A DNA stretch of 47,091 nt from assembly GCF_003334255.1 (NCBI RefSeq), contig NZ_QOWU01000042.1. One strand, given 5' to 3'. Origin of the DNA: Escherichia coli (GTDB taxonomy: Bacteria > Pseudomonadota > Gammaproteobacteria > Enterobacterales > Enterobacteriaceae). Under the pieces are notes generated by a model that searched no databases, was not told the origin of the DNA, and was given only the letters and a program-made list of their open reading frames with translations. Below are positions 5,262 through 47,014 of this stretch, piece by piece (positions within the stretch are counted from its first letter, which is position 1; each line of letters begins with the position of its first letter). The position numbers and the translations under genes were made by a program.

Positions 5262-6764
5262 ATGACGACTAACCAACACCAGGAGATCCTCCGCACCGAA
5301 GGATTAAGTAAATTTTTCCCCGGCGTCAAAGCGTTAGACAACGTTGATTTCAGCCTGCGCCGCGGCGAAATCATGGCGCTGCTCGGTGAAAACGGGGCAG
5401 GAAAATCAACGCTAATCAAAGCATTAACTGGTGTATACCACGCCGATCGCGGCACCATCTGGCTGGAAGGCCAGGCTATCTCACCGAAAAATACCGCCCA
5501 TGCACAACAACTCGGTATCGGCACCGTCTATCAGGAAGTAAACCTGCTACCCAATATGTCGGTCGCTGATAATCTATTTATAGGCCGCGAACCCAAACGC
5601 TTCGGCCTTCTACGCCGCAAAGAGATGGAAAAGCGCGCCACCGAACTGATGGCATCTTACGGTTTCTCCCTCGACGTGCGCGAACCGCTCAACCGCTTTT
5701 CAGTCGCGATGCAGCAAATCGTCGCTATTTGCCGGGCTATCGATCTCTCTGCCAAAGTGCTGATCCTCGATGAACCCACCGCCAGTCTCGACACCCAGGA
5801 AGTGGAGTTACTGTTTGACCTGATGCGTCAGTTGCGCGATCGCGGCGTCAGCCTGATTTTTGTCACTCACTTTCTCGATCAGGTCTATCAGGTCAGCGAT
5901 CGGATCACCGTCTTACGCAACGGCAGTTTCGTAGGCTGTCGGGAAACGTGCGAGCTACCGCAGATCGAACTGGTAAAAATGATGCTGGGGCGCGAGCTGG
6001 ATACCCACGCGCTACAGCGTGCCGGGCGAACATTGTTGAGCGACAAACCCGTTGCCGCGTTCAAAAATTACGGCAAAAAAGGAACGATCGCACCGTTTGA
6101 TCTCGAAGTACGCCCCGGCGAGATCGTCGGTCTGGCTGGATTGCTGGGATCAGGACGTACCGAAACCGCCGAAGTGATCTTCGGTATCAAACCTGCTGAC
6201 AGCGGCACGGCGTTGATCAAAGGCAAACCGCAAAACCTGCGATCGCCACATCAGGCTTCGGTACTGGGCATTGGCTTCTGCCCGGAAGACAGGAAAACCG
6301 ATGGCATCATCGCTGCCGCCTCGGTGCGGGAAAATATCATCCTCGCTCTCCAGGCCCAGCGCGGCTGGCTACGTCCCATTTCCCGCAAAGAACAGCAAGA
6401 GATTGCCGAACGCTTTATCCGCCAGCTTGGCATTCGCACACCTTCAACTGAACAACCGATTGAATTTCTCTCTGGCGGCAATCAGCAAAAAGTGTTGCTT
6501 TCACGTTGGCTACTGACCCGACCGCAATTTCTGATCCTTGATGAGCCAACTCGCGGCATTGATGTTGGTGCCCACGCCGAGATCATCCGCCTGATTGAAA
6601 CGCTATGCGCCGATGGTCTGGCGCTGCTGGTGATCTCCTCCGAACTGGAAGAACTGGTGGGCTATGCCGACCGGGTGATCATCATGCGCGATCGCAAACA
6701 GGTGGCGGAGATCCCGCTGGCAGAGCTTTCCGTTCCGGCGATCATGAACGCCATTGCGGCGTAA
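5262..6764 (+). CDS. ytfR: galactofuranose ABC transporter ATP-binding protein (two ABC domains)
   Basis: 500 aa. Walker A GENGAGKST, signature LSGGNQQK. Matches K-12 YtfR. Confidence 0.96.
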   Translation: MTTNQHQEILRTEGLSKFFPGVKALDNVDFSLRRGEIMALLGENGAGKSTLIKALTGVYHADRGTIWLEGQAISPKNTAHAQQLGIGTVYQEVNLLPNMSVADNLFIGREPKRFGLLRRKEMEKRATELMASYGFSLDVREPLNRFSVAMQQIVAICRAIDLSAKVLILDEPTASLDTQEVELLFDLMRQLRDRGVSLIFVTHFLDQVYQVSDRITVLRNGSFVGCRETCELPQIELVKMMLGRELDTHALQRAGRTLLSDKPVAAFKNYGKKGTIAPFDLEVRPGEIVGLAGLLGSGRTETAEVIFGIKPADSGTALIKGKPQNLRSPHQASVLGIGFCPEDRKTDGIIAAASVRENIILALQAQRGWLRPISRKEQQEIAERFIRQLGIRTPSTEQPIEFLSGGNQQKVLLSRWLLTRPQFLILDEPTRGIDVGAHAEIIRLIETLCADGLALLVISSELEELVGYADRVIIMRDRKQVAEIPLAELSVPAIMNAIAA

Positions 6765-6774
6765 GGAGAACAGT

Positions 6775-7800
6775 GTGATGCCTCAATCTCTCCCGGACAC
6801 TACGCCGCCGAAAAGGCGCTTTCGCTGGCCAACGGGAATGCCGCAGCTGGCGGCACTGTTGCTGGTGCTGCTGGTCGATAGCCTGGTGGCCCCGCATTTC
6901 TGGCAGGTGGTGCTCCAGGATGGGCGTTTATTCGGTAGCCCCATAGACATTCTTAACCGTGCGGCCCCCGTTGCGCTGTTGGCTATCGGAATGACGCTGG
7001 TGATCGCAACAGGTGGGATTGATCTCTCCGTGGGGGCGGTGATGGCTATCGCCGGAGCCACAACGGCTGCGATGACGGTCGCGGGATTCAGCCTGCCGAT
7101 TGTTTTGTTAAGCGCCCTGGGCACTGGCATCCTGGCGGGATTGTGGAACGGCATACTGGTAGCGATCCTCAAAATTCAGCCGTTTGTTGCCACCCTGATC
7201 CTGATGGTCGCCGGGCGCGGCGTGGCGCAACTGATCACCTCCGGACAGATCGTCACGTTTAACTCGCCGGATCTCTCATGGTTTGGCAGTGGATCGCTGT
7301 TGTTCCTGCCAACGCCGGTCATTATCGCGGTGCTGACGCTTATCCTGTTCTGGCTGTTGACCCGCAAAACGGCGCTGGGGATGTTTATCGAAGCCGTTGG
7401 TATCAACATTCGGGCGGCAAAAAATGCCGGGGTAAACACGCGGATCATCGTCATGCTTACCTACGTGTTGAGCGGGCTGTGTGCGGCGATTGCGGGCATT
7501 ATCGTGGCGGCGGATATTCGCGGTGCCGATGCCAATAACGCCGGGTTATGGCTGGAGCTGGACGCCATTCTCGCGGTGGTTATTGGCGGCGGATCGCTGA
7601 TGGGCGGACGTTTTAACCTACTGCTTTCGGTGGTGGGGGCGCTGATTATTCAGGGGATGAACACCGGAATTTTGCTTTCGGGCTTTCCGCCAGAGATGAA
7701 CCAGGTTGTAAAAGCGGTGGTGGTTCTTTGCGTGCTGATTGTCCAGTCGCAACGCTTTATCAGTCTGATTAAAGGAGTACGTAGCCGTGATAAAACGTAA
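6775..7800 (+). CDS. ytfT: galactofuranose ABC transporter permease
   Basis: Start placed at GTG 6775 (or ATG 6778) after AAGGAG at 6763-6768. The polytopic membrane protein matches K-12 YtfT. Confidence 0.93.
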   Translation: MMPQSLPDTTPPKRRFRWPTGMPQLAALLLVLLVDSLVAPHFWQVVLQDGRLFGSPIDILNRAAPVALLAIGMTLVIATGGIDLSVGAVMAIAGATTAAMTVAGFSLPIVLLSALGTGILAGLWNGILVAILKIQPFVATLILMVAGRGVAQLITSGQIVTFNSPDLSWFGSGSLLFLPTPVIIAVLTLILFWLLTRKTALGMFIEAVGINIRAAKNAGVNTRIIVMLTYVLSGLCAAIAGIIVAADIRGADANNAGLWLELDAILAVVIGGGSLMGGRFNLLLSVVGALIIQGMNTGILLSGFPPEMNQVVKAVVVLCVLIVQSQRFISLIKGVRSRDKT

Positions 7801-12164: not shown

Positions 12165-13517
12165 ATGGCACTTGCAATGAAAGTAATCTCTCAAGTTGAA
12201 GCGCAGCGCAAGATTCTGGAAGAAGCAGTTTCCACTGCGCTGGAGTTGGCCTCAGGCAAATCGGACGGTGCGGAAGTTGCCGTCAGCAAGACCACCGGCA
12301 TTAGCGTAAGCACGCGTTATGGTGAAGTGGAGAATGTTGAATTCAATAGCGATGGCGCGCTGGGGATCACTGTTTATCACCAGAACCGCAAAGGTAGCGC
12401 ATCATCCACCGATTTAAGCCCGCAGGCCATTGCCCGTACTGTACAGGCGGCGCTGGATATTGCCCGTTATACCTCGCCAGATCCCTGTGCCGGCGTGGCA
12501 GACAAAGAGCTGCTGGCCTTTGACGCACCAGATCTCGACTTGTTCCACCCTGCGGAAGTTTCCCCGGATGAAGCCATTGAACTGGCGGCCCGCGCAGAAC
12601 AGGCGGCATTGCAGGCGGACAAACGCATCACCAATACCGAAGGTGGCAGCTTTAACAGCCACTACGGTGTCAAAGTTTTTGGCAACAGCCACGGCATGTT
12701 GCAGGGTTACTGCTCAACGCGTCATTCGCTCTCCAGCTGTGTAATTGCCGAAGAAAATGGCGATATGGAGCGTGATTACGCCTACACCATTGGTCGTGCG
12801 ATGAGCGATCTGCAAACGCCAGAGTGGGTTGGGGCCGACTGTGCTCGCCGTACTTTATCGCGCCTGTCACCGCGTAAACTCTCCACCATGAAAGCGCCGG
12901 TCATTTTTGCCAATGAAGTGGCAACCGGGCTTTTTGGCCATCTGGTGGGGGCGATAGCGGGTGGATCGGTTTACCGTAAATCCACCTTCCTGCTGGATTC
13001 GCTGGGTAAACAAATTCTGCCGGACTGGCTGACCATTGAAGAGCATCCGCATCTGCTGAAAGGGCTGGCATCGACGCCATTTGACAGCGAAGGTGTGCGC
13101 ACCGAGCGTCGCGATATTATTAAAGATGGCATCCTGACTCAGTGGCTGCTGACCAGCTACTCGGCGCGGAAACTGGGGCTGAAAAGCACCGGACATGCGG
13201 GCGGTATTCACAACTGGCGGATTGCCGGACAAGGGCTAAGCTTCGAACAAATGCTCAAAGAGATGGGTACCGGGCTGGTGGTGACGGAGCTGATGGGCCA
13301 GGGCGTGAGTGCCATTACCGGTGATTATTCCCGTGGTGCAGCGGGCTTCTGGGTAGAGAATGGCGAAATTCAGTATCCGGTTAGCGAAATCACCATCGCA
13401 GGTAATTTAAAAGATATGTGGCGCAATATTGTCACCGTCGGTAACGATATTGAAACACGCAGTAATATACAGTGTGGTTCTGTGCTGTTGCCGGAGATGA
13501 AAATCGCCGGGCAGTAA
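12165..13517 (+). CDS. pmbA: metalloprotease PmbA (TldE)
   Basis: 450 aa, [22 protein letters not shown]... matches K-12 PmbA. Confidence 0.97.
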
Positions 13518-44392: not shown

Positions 44393-44530
44393 TTTTGGGT
44401 CCTTCTCTGGTGTTGTTTGGGAAGTGTAGAGCATGGCAGGGCGGGGTGCCTGGAGTGTGACAAAGGTTACATATCGCTGAGTGTAATGCTGAAAATTTCA
44501 GCACTTAGCGAGGTGGGTGCAAGCTGGCGC

Positions 44531-44558
44531 TTGCATGGTGGCGTGCGACAGGTATAAT
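44531..44558 (+). promoter_or_regulatory. leuX promoter
   Basis: -35 ttgcat (44531-44536), 16-nt spacer, -10 tataat (44553-44558), about 30 nt upstream of the mature tRNA 5' end. Confidence 0.7.
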
Positions 44559-44587
44559 CCACAACGTTTTCCGCATACCTCTTCAGT

Positions 44588-44672
44588 GCCGAAGTGGCGA
44601 AATCGGTAGACGCAGTTGATTCAAAATCAACCGTAGAAATACGTGCCGGTTCGAGTCCGGCCTTCGGCACCA
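44588..44672 (+). tRNA. leuX: tRNA-Leu (anticodon CAA)
   Basis: gccgaagtggcgaaatcggtagacgcagttgattCAAaatcaaccgtagaaatacgtgccggttcgagtccggccttcggcacca. It has a long variable arm, the anticodon at 44622-44624 and an encoded CCA. Confidence 0.97.
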
Positions 44673-44904
44673 AGTTACTAAATTCCTTACAATACAGTTA
44701 GTTAGACGATTAAATCTGTCTCTTTTGCCTGTAAGAAATGCTCTGTTATGTCCCTTGAAAAAGCCGCTGTGGTTGATAGTGGTAATTGGGATGTTAACTC
44801 ATAGCGGCGTGTCGTTCCAAGCGTCAAACACGTACTGACTCAACTTGAAAGCTATGACGTAGCCACCGTCTCTAAACAATCCCAAAACTTTTAGTGCAGC
44901 GCAT

Positions 44905-45120
44905 TTTAGCCCGATGCCCCCATTCTGTCGCCGTCGCGAGACGCCGCAGGGGATAAACAGGTTTATGGTGGTCACGGTACTTGCAGACCATATGCAAGCT
45001 CTGCCAGCGGTTCGGCCTCGCTCCCCTTGGGTACATGGTCATCCTGATAAGCCTCACTAACTGACATAACCCTGATGAAGTCGCAAGAGGCTCCGCTTGT
45101 TGTCTTACCACCAACGGGGC
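44905..45120. other. GC-rich non-coding block with multiple complementary segments (candidate structured RNA or gene relic)
   Basis: It is embedded in AT-rich DNA. Local hairpin cttgca/tgcaag (44980-44985 / 44993-44998). agcctc/gaggct (45050-45055 / 45087-45092). Long-range tggtggt/accacca (44966-44972 / 45107-45113). No convincing ORF in any frame. Confidence 0.3.
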
Positions 45121-45205
45121 TTTATGGATTCTATTGCTTAATATATGATTGTATCAAACTTAGACTGCATAATTTAAACGAACATAACAATCAGGCAGGG
45201 GAAGA

Positions 45206-46030
45206 ATGATAAAGCCATTTTCTGTGAGGTATGGTCATGTTGACGTTAGAGAGCATGTCCAGCTGAATGATCTTAATTCTGATACACGCATGGCATTGTG
45301 GAATTGCTTATATCTTTTCCTTTGGACTAACAATCGTCAAACTGCTACAGCAACAAAATGTGCGCAGTCTGTGTGGATATATTATCTAAATCAACCTGCG
45401 GATAATATTCCTCGTTATGAAAGTGGATACAAAAGTGATAAGACGTTGCTGACTGCTATCCGAGATTATATATATGGGGAAGCATGGTATTTGGTATATG
45501 ATTTAATTGAGTTCATCATTGAGAGAACTAATTCATATATTAATCTATCGAAGCATCTCAATTCCATCTTTAAAAAGCATGGCGTTGGTTATACCATAAT
45601 AAATGGTTGTATTACTCCTATTTCAAATGATAACGAAATTGAAAGTGTTCAGAACGCAGTTGATAATGGCACTGATTCATCGCGTAGCCATTTCGAAAGG
45701 GCGTTACAACTAATGACGGATAGAGAGCAGCCAGACTACAGAAACTCGATTAAAGAGTCTATCTCTGCAATTGAATCTTTATGCAGGAAAATCACGGGCA
45801 ATGATAAAGGAACCTTGGGGGCTTGTCTTAAAGCTATAGAGGAAAAAGGATATATACACTCTGCAATGAAAGGCGCTTTTAGTCAGCTCTATGGTTATAC
45901 AAGTGATCAGGGTGGAATACGTCATGCGCTAACAGAAGAAGATGTAAATCCTACCTTAGCTGAAGCTAAATTTATGTTAGTCACTTGCAGTGCGTTCAGT
46001 AATTATCTGTTGTCAAAAATAAGTGATTAA
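45206..46030 (+). CDS. AbiJ-like protein: AbiJ-type N-terminal domain plus HEPN/Abi_C-like C-terminal domain (274 aa)
   Basis: ATG follows GGGGAAG. The N-terminus FSVRYGHVDVREHVQLNDLNSDTRMALWNCLYLFLW resembles the AbiJ N-terminal domain pattern (FS.R.G....IQ.d....LRN.LWN) as I recall it. The C-terminus LYGYTSDQGGIRHALTEE plus a helical tail resembles the HEPN-like Abi_C motif. No search was run. Confidence 0.55.
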   Translation: MIKPFSVRYGHVDVREHVQLNDLNSDTRMALWNCLYLFLWTNNRQTATATKCAQSVWIYYLNQPADNIPRYESGYKSDKTLLTAIRDYIYGEAWYLVYDLIEFIIERTNSYINLSKHLNSIFKKHGVGYTIINGCITPISNDNEIESVQNAVDNGTDSSRSHFERALQLMTDREQPDYRNSIKESISAIESLCRKITGNDKGTLGACLKAIEEKGYIHSAMKGAFSQLYGYTSDQGGIRHALTEEDVNPTLAEAKFMLVTCSAFSNYLLSKISD

Positions 46031-46048: not shown

Positions 46049-46069
46049 GAGTGGGTTAGTTACCCACTC
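46049..46069. terminator. hairpin between the convergent island genes
   Basis: gagtgggt-tagtt-acccactc (8-bp stem) followed by cctttaaaatt. Confidence 0.55.
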
Positions 46070-46078
46070 CCTTTAAAA

Positions 46079-46651
46079 TTATTCACCAGACTCTAATCTT
46101 TTTTCTCTTTTCTCATCTCTCCTTTTTATTGCCAAATCGTGTTGCTCTTGCAGATACGTGCGTTCTTCGTTTCTATCGCTTGAAGTATATACGTCTGCTT
46201 TTACTTTTTTAGCTCCTTGTGCAATAGGTTTCCAATCCTCTCTTATACCTTTAATTTGTTCTGCAATTTGCGTCAATGGGCTTCTCGCTCCTAGATAACT
46301 TATTCCTTCAAATGTCGCCATGTCATACACATATTCATTTGTTTCTCTATCGTTTGATTTAGGTTTGCTTGCCCAGCTTATATTAATATTATAAATTTGA
46401 TCTTTGATTTGTTCATACTTACAGAGATTGCTGGTAAGTGATTGCCCATTTTTTAACACGCTTACCTTACTAAACGGAATCTCACTTTTTTCTCTATGCT
46501 CCGCATTTACTAGTGGAGGATCAAACACAACCTCAACATTATAGGCAGGTGCGTTCCCTGTATTAGCAATGTTAATATCAAAGTAAAAAGCGGCCCAAGG
46601 GTTTGGCTCAAGTGTTACAACTATATGGGGTTGAGCTGATGCGTCAACCAT
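46079..46651 (-). CDS. hypothetical protein (190 aa from ATG 46651); predicted beta-rich N-terminal part and highly charged helical tail; 5' end uncertain
   Basis: ORF 46079..46705, but codons upstream of about 46672 are encoded by the IS911 terminal repeat. The listed GTG start at 46705 is therefore fortuitous. The first native ATG is at 46651 (MVDASAQPHIVVTLEPNPW...). No family recognised. Confidence 0.5.
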   Translation of the reverse strand: MVDASAQPHIVVTLEPNPWAAFYFDINIANTGNAPAYNVEVVFDPPLVNAEHREKSEIPFSKVSVLKNGQSLTSNLCKYEQIKDQIYNINISWASKPKSNDRETNEYVYDMATFEGISYLGARSPLTQIAEQIKGIREDWKPIAQGAKKVKADVYTSSDRNEERTYLQEQHDLAIKRRDEKREKRLESGE

Positions 46652-46679
46652 TCTTTTTGTCTCGTCTGCTCTGAAGTGG

Positions 46680-47014
46680 TGAAGTGGTTTACTGAATTTG
46701 GCCACCTGAACAGAGGTGATATGCTCACCTCAGAACAACACAGGTGCTCCAATGAAAAAAAGAAATTTTAGCGCAGAGTTTAAACGCGAATCCGCTCAAC
46801 TGGTTGTTGACCAGACATACACGGTGGCAGATGCCGCCAAAGCTATGGATGTTGGCCTTTCCACAATGACAAGATGGGTCAAACAACTGCGTGATGAGCG
46901 TCAGGGCAAAACACCAAAAGCCTCTCCGATAACACCAGAACAAATCGAAATACGTAAGCTGAGGAAAAAGCTACAACGCATTGAAATGGAGAATGAAATA
47001 TTAAAAAAGGCTAC
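46680..47014 (+). mobile_element. IS911 (IS3 family), left end and 5' part only, truncated by an IS30-family insertion
   Basis: The left terminal repeat tgaagtggtttactgaatttggccacctgaacagagg and orfA are near-identical to K-12 IS911 (insN) as recalled. The terminal octamer tgaagtgg occurs twice in tandem (46672-46679 and 46680-46687), so the exact end is ambiguous. Confidence 0.85.
46752..47014 (+). pseudogene. insN: IS911 orfA (InsN) interrupted after ...[10 protein letters not shown]
   Basis: [88 protein letters not shown]. The frame then runs into unrelated IS30-like terminal sequence. Confidence 0.85.

Follow-up and report, generated by a model that had tools for sequence, protein, structure and literature searches.

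An open reading frame beside the tRNA gene leuX, at the end of a 47,091-nt stretch of Escherichia coli DNA (here called the window), raises the question of whether it encodes an anti-phage protein and, if so, whether this protein acts alone or depends on one of its neighbours, a structured block upstream or a convergent gene downstream. In the original prediction, the gene, here termed abiJ, was regarded as stand-alone cargo encoding an AbiJ-like N-terminal domain and a HEPN-like Abi_C domain at the C-terminus, and both neighbours were put forward as candidate partners. As a discovery, abiJ adds little, since RefSeq and PADLOC both flag the gene already: it carries a RefSeq name, its Pfam family was described in 2013, and it belongs to the PADLOC candidate PDC-S32. 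New are the non-canonical R-H dyad of its C-terminal domain, evidence for action without a partner, the finding that the convergent DUF8453 gene is truncated, and a structured upstream element that is separate from abiJ.

Genomic location and gene structure

The end of the window corresponds to the pepA-lptFG-yjgR-ahr-leuX region of E. coli. The tRNA-Leu(CAA) gene leuX (44588-44672, + strand), which was called by ARAGORN and Rfam, is an island integration site and anchors a known E. coli defence hotspot, listed in a review as 'hotspot #37', the most highly occupied among 41 defence islands (PMC12707154). The abiJ coding sequence (45206-46030 including the stop codon, + strand) comprises 274 codons and starts with ATG. 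Its product is identical to WP_000594911.1, which is named 'AbiJ-NTD4 domain-containing protein' by RefSeq in complete E. coli genomes with 100% identical DNA; the convergent neighbour is named 'DUF8453 domain-containing protein' in the same genomes. The start codon is credible, as Met1 and the peptide F5-S6-x-R8-x-G10 align with homologues from many phyla. As had been predicted, the gene has its own Shine-Dalgarno-like sequence, read from the sequence as AGGGGAAG (45197-45204, + strand) directly before the ATG, and its stop codon is followed by a hairpin (46049-46069), which lies between abiJ and the convergent gene and has an 8-bp stem (46049-46056/46062-46069) and a 5-nt loop. This hairpin has no T-run and was not called by terminator prediction.

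The GC content of abiJ and the convergent gene is 0.33-0.40, whereas that of the core genes on their left is about 0.53. On the far side of the convergent gene lie the left end and a partial orfA (from 46743) of an IS3-family element (about 46672/46680 to 47011, + strand), annotated by RefSeq as 'transposase, incomplete'. In related genomes, this element is itself interrupted by IS30. We take the IS3-family element at about 46680-47011 to be IS911-like. abiJ thus belongs to the AT-rich cargo of a degraded islet in the leuX hotspot, and the description as stand-alone cargo next to leuX is borne out by the position of the tRNA gene and by the lack of a conserved partner gene, as detailed below.

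Among 5426 complete E. coli genomes, 469 (about 9%) carry abiJ, always on the chromosome, and in 468 of them the gene is at least 99% identical. Carriers include strain S88, the type strain ATCC 11775 and a derivative of Nissle 1917. In the E. coli genomes G1/2, G6/7 and G8, the 2.6-kb leuX-abiJ stretch of the window matches in two pieces. In G1/2, a query with the gene only is also split in two and an IS1A transposase is annotated beneath the match, which suggests that an IS1 insertion interrupts abiJ in this lineage.

The N-terminal domain

The assignment of an AbiJ N-terminal domain was confirmed by a Pfam search, in which residues 4-153 matched AbiJ_NTD4 (PF18863; profile positions 2-151 of 152) with 95.5 bits against a cut-off of 34 (E 5.8e-27). 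The same profile also matches 50 of 50 homologues. The definition of AbiJ-NTD4 goes back to Anantharaman et al. 2013, who distinguished five N-terminal domains that occur in fusion with HEPN domains of the AbiJ family (PMC3710099). Nearly the entire protein (residues 3-272) is covered by the PADLOC HMM for PDC-S32 (PDLC04997; profile positions 8-281 of 285; 345.8 bits, E 5.6e-104). PADLOC classes this family as a single-gene 'phage defence candidate', in agreement with the proposal that abiJ is a candidate anti-phage gene. Among the NCBIfam models, STM4504/CBY_0614 (NF046078) was the sole match, with 15.8 bits against a cut-off of 150, and distant relatives had none; PDB sequence searches with the abiJ protein and with the family profile as queries returned nothing meaningful.

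According to structure models, the N-terminal domain (residues 1-156, encoded at 45206-45673, + strand) consists of an MxxFSxRxG peptide followed by five helices, a beta-hairpin and a further helix. Near-invariant residues in an alignment of 92 family members are F5, S6, R8, G10, W32, W94, N119 and E144. The peptide, with the pattern M-x-x-F-S-x-R-x-G within residues 1-16 (45206-45253), retains F5 in 91, S6 in 90, G10 in 88 and R8 in 85 of these sequences, and it is disordered in both structure models (pLDDT <50). It could bind at another site, where it might serve in autoinhibition or contribute to an oligomer interface, and the helical bundle of this domain may be death-fold-like and drive oligomerisation.

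The C-terminal domain and its R-H dyad

The prediction of a HEPN-like Abi_C domain in the C-terminal part was correct with respect to the fold and not with respect to the family. The modelled domain (residues 157-274, encoded at 45674-46027, + strand) is a four-helix up-and-down bundle, the fold by which the HEPN superfamily is recognised. The Pfam profile Abi_C (PF14355) matched neither the abiJ protein at E<=1 nor the isolated C-terminal domain at E<=10, and it also found no match in three NTD4 proteins of 23-26% identity (E<=1) or in 50 homologues (E<=0.1). A precomputed PF14355 flag on two of 120 cluster representatives (P0013 and P0028) was not reproduced on rescan, in which both homologues had no Abi_C match at E<=10. 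No other Pfam HEPN model matches the C-terminal domain in the abiJ protein, as an isolated domain or in the homologues. The only sequence hint of HEPN consists of weak matches to DUF4145, which is a HEPN family (PMC3710099), in six of 50 homologues.

The conserved residues of this domain are found at two main sites. The near-invariant segment P176-D-Y-R-N-S-I-K-E-S-I-S187 (codons at 45731-45766, + strand) contains N180, K183, E184 and S187 in 92 of 92 sequences and R179 in 91 of 92. The second site is the adjacent pair R239-H240 within GGIRHA (codons CGT CAT at 45920-45925, + strand), which is invariant in all 92 family members from many phyla and is retained even in the most distant examples examined, NTD4 proteins of only 23-26% identity. 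Invariant as well, in addition to the residues N180, K183, E184 and S187, are H162 and E190. The alignment shows strong purifying selection on a polar cluster formed by H162, R179, N180, K183, E184, E190, H218, R239 and H240.

Judged by its position in the sequence, R239-H240 falls between the third and the last helix of the bundle. HEPN domains usually carry an Rx4-6H motif there, near the start of the last helix. This motif, the mark of catalytic HEPN members, is not conserved among the 92 sequences, and any R-x4-6-H in the last 125 residues was found in only 19 of them, at places that do not align. RNase activity is therefore not assured, because Rx4-6H is not conserved and neither Abi_C nor any other HEPN profile matches. 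If there is a catalytic site, it would be non-canonical and located around R239-H240 and the RNSIKES helix instead of Rx4-6H. AbiJ-NTD4 proteins may constitute a HEPN class of their own whose active site is the R-H dyad, a weaker reading than the one given below for the upstream element.

A profile of the C-terminal domain alone retrieved 4788 representatives of 50%-identity clusters, 1668 of them at E<=1e-30. Because nearly all of the best 150 of these representatives have a length of 265-300 aa with the domain at about residues 160-285, AbiJ-NTD4 and the C-terminal HEPN-fold domain are a fixed pair, an arrangement shared by thousands of relatives.

Distribution and neighbourhood of the family

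The family is very large, with 4437 clusters at 90% identity (E<=1e-3) and homologues in the genomes of at least 586 bacterial and archaeal species. Among the matches listed are Proteobacteria, Bacteroidota, Planctomycetota, Cyanobacteria, Acidobacteriota, Chloroflexota, Clostridia and a Methanocellales MAG, and these cross-phylum homologues share about 36-43% identity with the E. coli protein. An identity of about 40% from Proteobacteria to a Methanocellales MAG is unusually conservative for a defence gene.

Homologues are rare in phage records (four) and in plasmid records (24). The phage records include PQ868957.1 (13520-14350), MT836130.1 and NC_047738.1. Gene 17 of Curtobacterium phage Barebow is a full-length homologue with 29% identity, and the match in Rhizobium phage RHEph01 is confined to the C-terminal 57%.

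When open reading frames within 4 kb of the gene were clustered for 80 distant loci, no recurrent family was found except generic response regulators. The 141 immediate neighbours of homologues are a mixture with many housekeeping genes, and the defence and toxin genes among them comprise type II RM, ThsB, AriA, PD-T7-4, MzaA, PDC-S05/S26/M46B, ParE and RelE. At most, such a mix fits a mobile gene that stands alone and is frequently inserted among defence genes.

In Klebsiella and Enterobacter (loci L084-L093), a homologue with 60% identity (at 6001-6831) begins 38 nt past a P4-type integrase gene and lies at the edge of an island with a resolvase and two proteins of about 610 aa and about 1590 aa (1591 aa). 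This island is of one type and is inserted at different chromosomal sites; its proteins had no meaningful PADLOC or Pfam match.

The upstream spacer and its structured element

The spacer of 533 bp between leuX and abiJ (44673-45205) is present in 630 E. coli genomes, and its first 465-475 bp precede different cargo in other strains. In strain RS571 (L082), the cargo past the leuX spacer consists of a gene for a hypothetical 304-aa protein and a resolvase gene, and in strain C6 (L083, 7538-9411) it consists of DUF3800 (PADLOC candidate PDC-M04A) and a helicase. The RS571 islet has a size of 5.6 kb, is bounded by a repeat of the leuX 3'-end (6980-7000 and 12578-12598), and encodes a serine recombinase and no tyrosine integrase of its own. 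Between the window and the metagenomic contig L094, the spacer is 97-99% identical, whereas the genes there are only about 80% identical.

The 3' part of the spacer harbours a conserved structured element of about 190 nt (44934-45130, + strand; RNA or single-stranded DNA). Copies with 74-89% identity occur on 66 plasmids of enterobacteria, where the neighbours include relBE and a KAP NTPase gene that follows the element. Metagenomes contributed at least 120 contigs with the element, and IMG/VR five. Of 134 element copies, 81 lie 277-408 nt downstream of a tRNA gene on the same strand (Leu-CAA 42, Gly-CCC 35, Ala-GGC 3, Thr-CGT 1). Similarity between copies ceases right after ...CCAACGGGGCTTTATGG, which marks the start of the cargo.

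For 77 distinct copies, RNAalifold yielded eight helices in which 98.2% of cells pair, vs 37-43% with the partners slid. The covariation score was 0.190, vs at most 0.068 with slid partners and 0.086 in shuffled alignments, and none of 500 shuffles reached 0.190. These values are subject to the caveats that the copies are not independent of each other by descent, that the structure came from the very alignment on which it was scored, and that the 22-nt seed by which copies were collected is necessarily invariant. Two helices have three covarying pairs each, and a hairpin with a GNRA-type loop carries an inserted 27-nt hairpin in two copies. Minimum free energy z-scores for the whole block were not significant. 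Since G-U pairs are frequent on the + strand, they point to this strand as the structured one.

A search with Rfam 15 in E-value mode, covering the window and nine other copies, detected tRNA only and nothing at the element, so that the spacer does not correspond to a known RNA in Rfam. It was also considered as a remnant of an integrase gene and rejected, as tblastn with the Klebsiella/Enterobacter integrases was empty and indels between copies break every open reading frame. An identification of the leuX islet as a pipolin was likewise dropped; the pipolin literature mentions neither AbiJ nor the structured element.

The proposal that this structured block is a partner of abiJ was not supported. 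It is a separate element that also occurs with unrelated cargo and on plasmids without abiJ, and it is absent upstream of the Klebsiella/Enterobacter homologues with 60% identity. A tandem repeat array was not detected by TRF in 44500-45206, nor was a direct-repeat family, and there is accordingly no upstream repeat-RNA antitoxin array like those of the AbiF/AbiV-like type III toxin-antitoxin systems. The recurrence of the element after four types of tRNA genes and on plasmids, where it marks the boundary of cargo exchange, leads to the tentative proposal that it could be a functional island-end or hotspot element, with abiJ, DUF3800/PDC-M04A, a KAP NTPase gene or relBE as exchanged cargo.

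The convergent DUF8453 gene

The gene convergent with abiJ (WP_000227281.1; 46079-46651 in RefSeq, 46079-46705 as open reading frame; - strand) encodes a DUF8453 protein. A full-length homologue of 231 aa with 78% identity is encoded on L094 (2545-3240) and has an N-terminal hydrophobic helix, predicted to be transmembrane. Similarity between the window and L094 ends at 46670, and the left end of the IS3-family element (TGAAGTGG...) then begins; the DUF8453 copy of the window is therefore 5'-truncated and has lost about its first 38-44 codons, including the predicted transmembrane helix, to the IS3-family insertion. The adjacency of abiJ and DUF8453 that a two-gene system would conserve was not found across divergent homologues: tblastn detected DUF8453 in none of the 80 distant loci or the Klebsiella/Enterobacter loci, and among about ten closer loci only L094 has it beside the abiJ homologue. 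The suggestion that the convergent gene is the partner of abiJ thus fails, with the copy in the window truncated and a single close homologue among the 80 distant and about ten closer loci having the gene at its side.

Relation to known defence proteins

abiJ is a member of PDC-S32/AbiJ-NTD4 (PF18863) and does not differ from this family, which is itself a computational candidate. Literature searches on PDC-S32, on AbiJ-NTD4 and on tests of AbiJ in E. coli brought up no paper in which the function of the NTD4 family was studied. The prototype of AbiJ-NTD4, CBY_0614/STM4504 (NF046078; Anantharaman et al. 2013), has the same predicted architecture and about 280 aa, and the match to it is weak and collinear (residues 116-198 on profile positions 113-197); with a score this far below the cut-off, abiJ does not belong to that subfamily.

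The founding AbiJ protein of Lactococcus lactis (Abi-859) resembles the abiJ product in being a single protein with an N-terminal domain followed by a C-terminal domain of the HEPN superfamily, and it is of similar size, the superposition of AbiJ in PMC13064643 referring to 282 aa. It is known to act against phages, and phages that escape it carry mutations in ssDNA-annealing proteins, while its mechanism is still unknown (PMC13064643). Abi_C has been tied to the C-terminus of Abi-859 (10.1101/2024.07.02.601686, PMC13590631), whereas the C-terminal domain studied here lies outside Pfam Abi_C. Furthermore, the motif reported for Abi_C proteins is RΦX3-5H (PMC13590631), in contrast to the RH dyad of the NTD4 family.

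For SadR of Staphylococcus aureus, an RNase with an Abi_C domain, RNase, anti-phage and anti-plasmid activities have been shown experimentally (PMC13590631). SadR and the abiJ product are both stand-alone proteins with a HEPN-type C-terminal domain that are encoded beside an integration hotspot of mobile elements. They differ in that the N-terminal domain of SadR is Sdh5-like and its Abi_C motif canonical, whereas the C-terminal domain of the abiJ product is outside the Abi_C model. NTD4 was present in only three of the 2815 Abi_C proteins surveyed in the SadR study (PMC13590631), so that the C-terminal domain of the abiJ product lies outside the experimentally tested range. The HEPN RNase toxins RnlA and LsoA of E. 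coli and the CRISPR-associated Csm6 have Rx4-6H and dedicated antitoxins or sensor domains for cyclic oligoadenylates, whereas abiJ has neither an antitoxin gene nor the canonical motif.

Proposed function and alternative explanations

abiJ probably encodes a stand-alone, single-protein abortive-infection or defence factor in which AbiJ-NTD4 is fused to a HEPN-fold domain. In the uninfected cell, the N-terminal domain would keep the HEPN domain inactive, following the model of Anantharaman et al. 2013 (PMC3710099). A phage component would then engage the N-terminal domain, whereupon the HEPN domains, probably as a dimer, would cleave RNA, as the fold, the invariant residues and the analogy with L. 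lactis AbiJ and S. aureus SadR suggest, and growth would stop before the phage cycle is completed. The sequences show neither a conserved partner gene nor an antitoxin RNA encoded by upstream repeats, and abiJ is in this respect a stand-alone gene. Confidence in the overall reading is limited to a modest preference because Rx4-6H is missing, Abi_C is unmatched and the conservation across phyla is unusual; the many housekeeping genes next to homologues also count against it.

The main rival explanation, which is unlikely on present evidence, is that the HEPN-fold domain is not a nuclease and binds a ligand or partner, in which case the protein would serve as sensor, adaptor or regulator within defence or in another process. 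HEPN domains lacking Rx4-6H are known to bind nucleotides or other ligands, for example those paired with nucleotidyltransferases or that of sacsin; however, an invariant block of charged and polar residues (R, N, K, E, H, R-H) is seen more typically in catalytic centres, the conserved partner gene with which a signalling protein would communicate is missing, and the combination of a variable sensor-type N-terminal domain with HEPN parallels known effectors (PMC3710099). Improbable as well is a role of abiJ as a selfish or maintenance gene of integrative elements, be it an addiction-type toxin or an integrase-linked regulator, for which any anti-phage effect would be incidental. The integrase-proximal homologue at the edge of the Klebsiella/Enterobacter island with its varied sites would fit such a role, as would the position of E. 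coli abiJ at the tRNA-proximal end of a degraded island and the toxin-antitoxin genes among the neighbours of homologues. Yet no recurrent integrase or recombinase adjoins the gene in most of the 80 distant loci, a position next to an integrase is also typical of defence cargo, and homologues are scarce on plasmids and phages.

That abiJ forms a two-component system with the DUF8453 gene, or with the upstream element as antitoxin or regulator, is very hard to reconcile with the distribution of these components, which largely refutes it. Collinearity of att, block, abiJ and DUF8453 at 81% identity is seen in one metagenomic contig, L094, and some HEPN Abi toxins (AbiF, AbiV) do have RNA antitoxins (PMC13064643). 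Against this, DUF8453 is absent from 80 of 80 distant loci and from the Klebsiella/Enterobacter loci, and it is truncated by an IS while abiJ is intact and highly conserved in 468 genomes. The element, for its part, is not built of tandem repeats, does not precede the Klebsiella/Enterobacter homologues, and also occurs with unrelated cargo, on plasmids near relBE and after four different tRNAs. A defence factor that acts alone is retained as the preferred explanation for abiJ.

Significance

If abiJ protects against phages, it would provide an experimental foothold for a very large family that is known only from computation, and abiJ itself is present in the well-studied strains ATCC 11775, S88 and a Nissle 1917 derivative. 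Because its HEPN domain lacks the canonical Rx4-6H, RNase activity, whether shown or excluded, would tell whether the R-H dyad offers another route to catalysis. As about 9% of complete E. coli genomes carry abiJ at the main defence hotspot of the species, the gene also bears on the prediction of phage host range.
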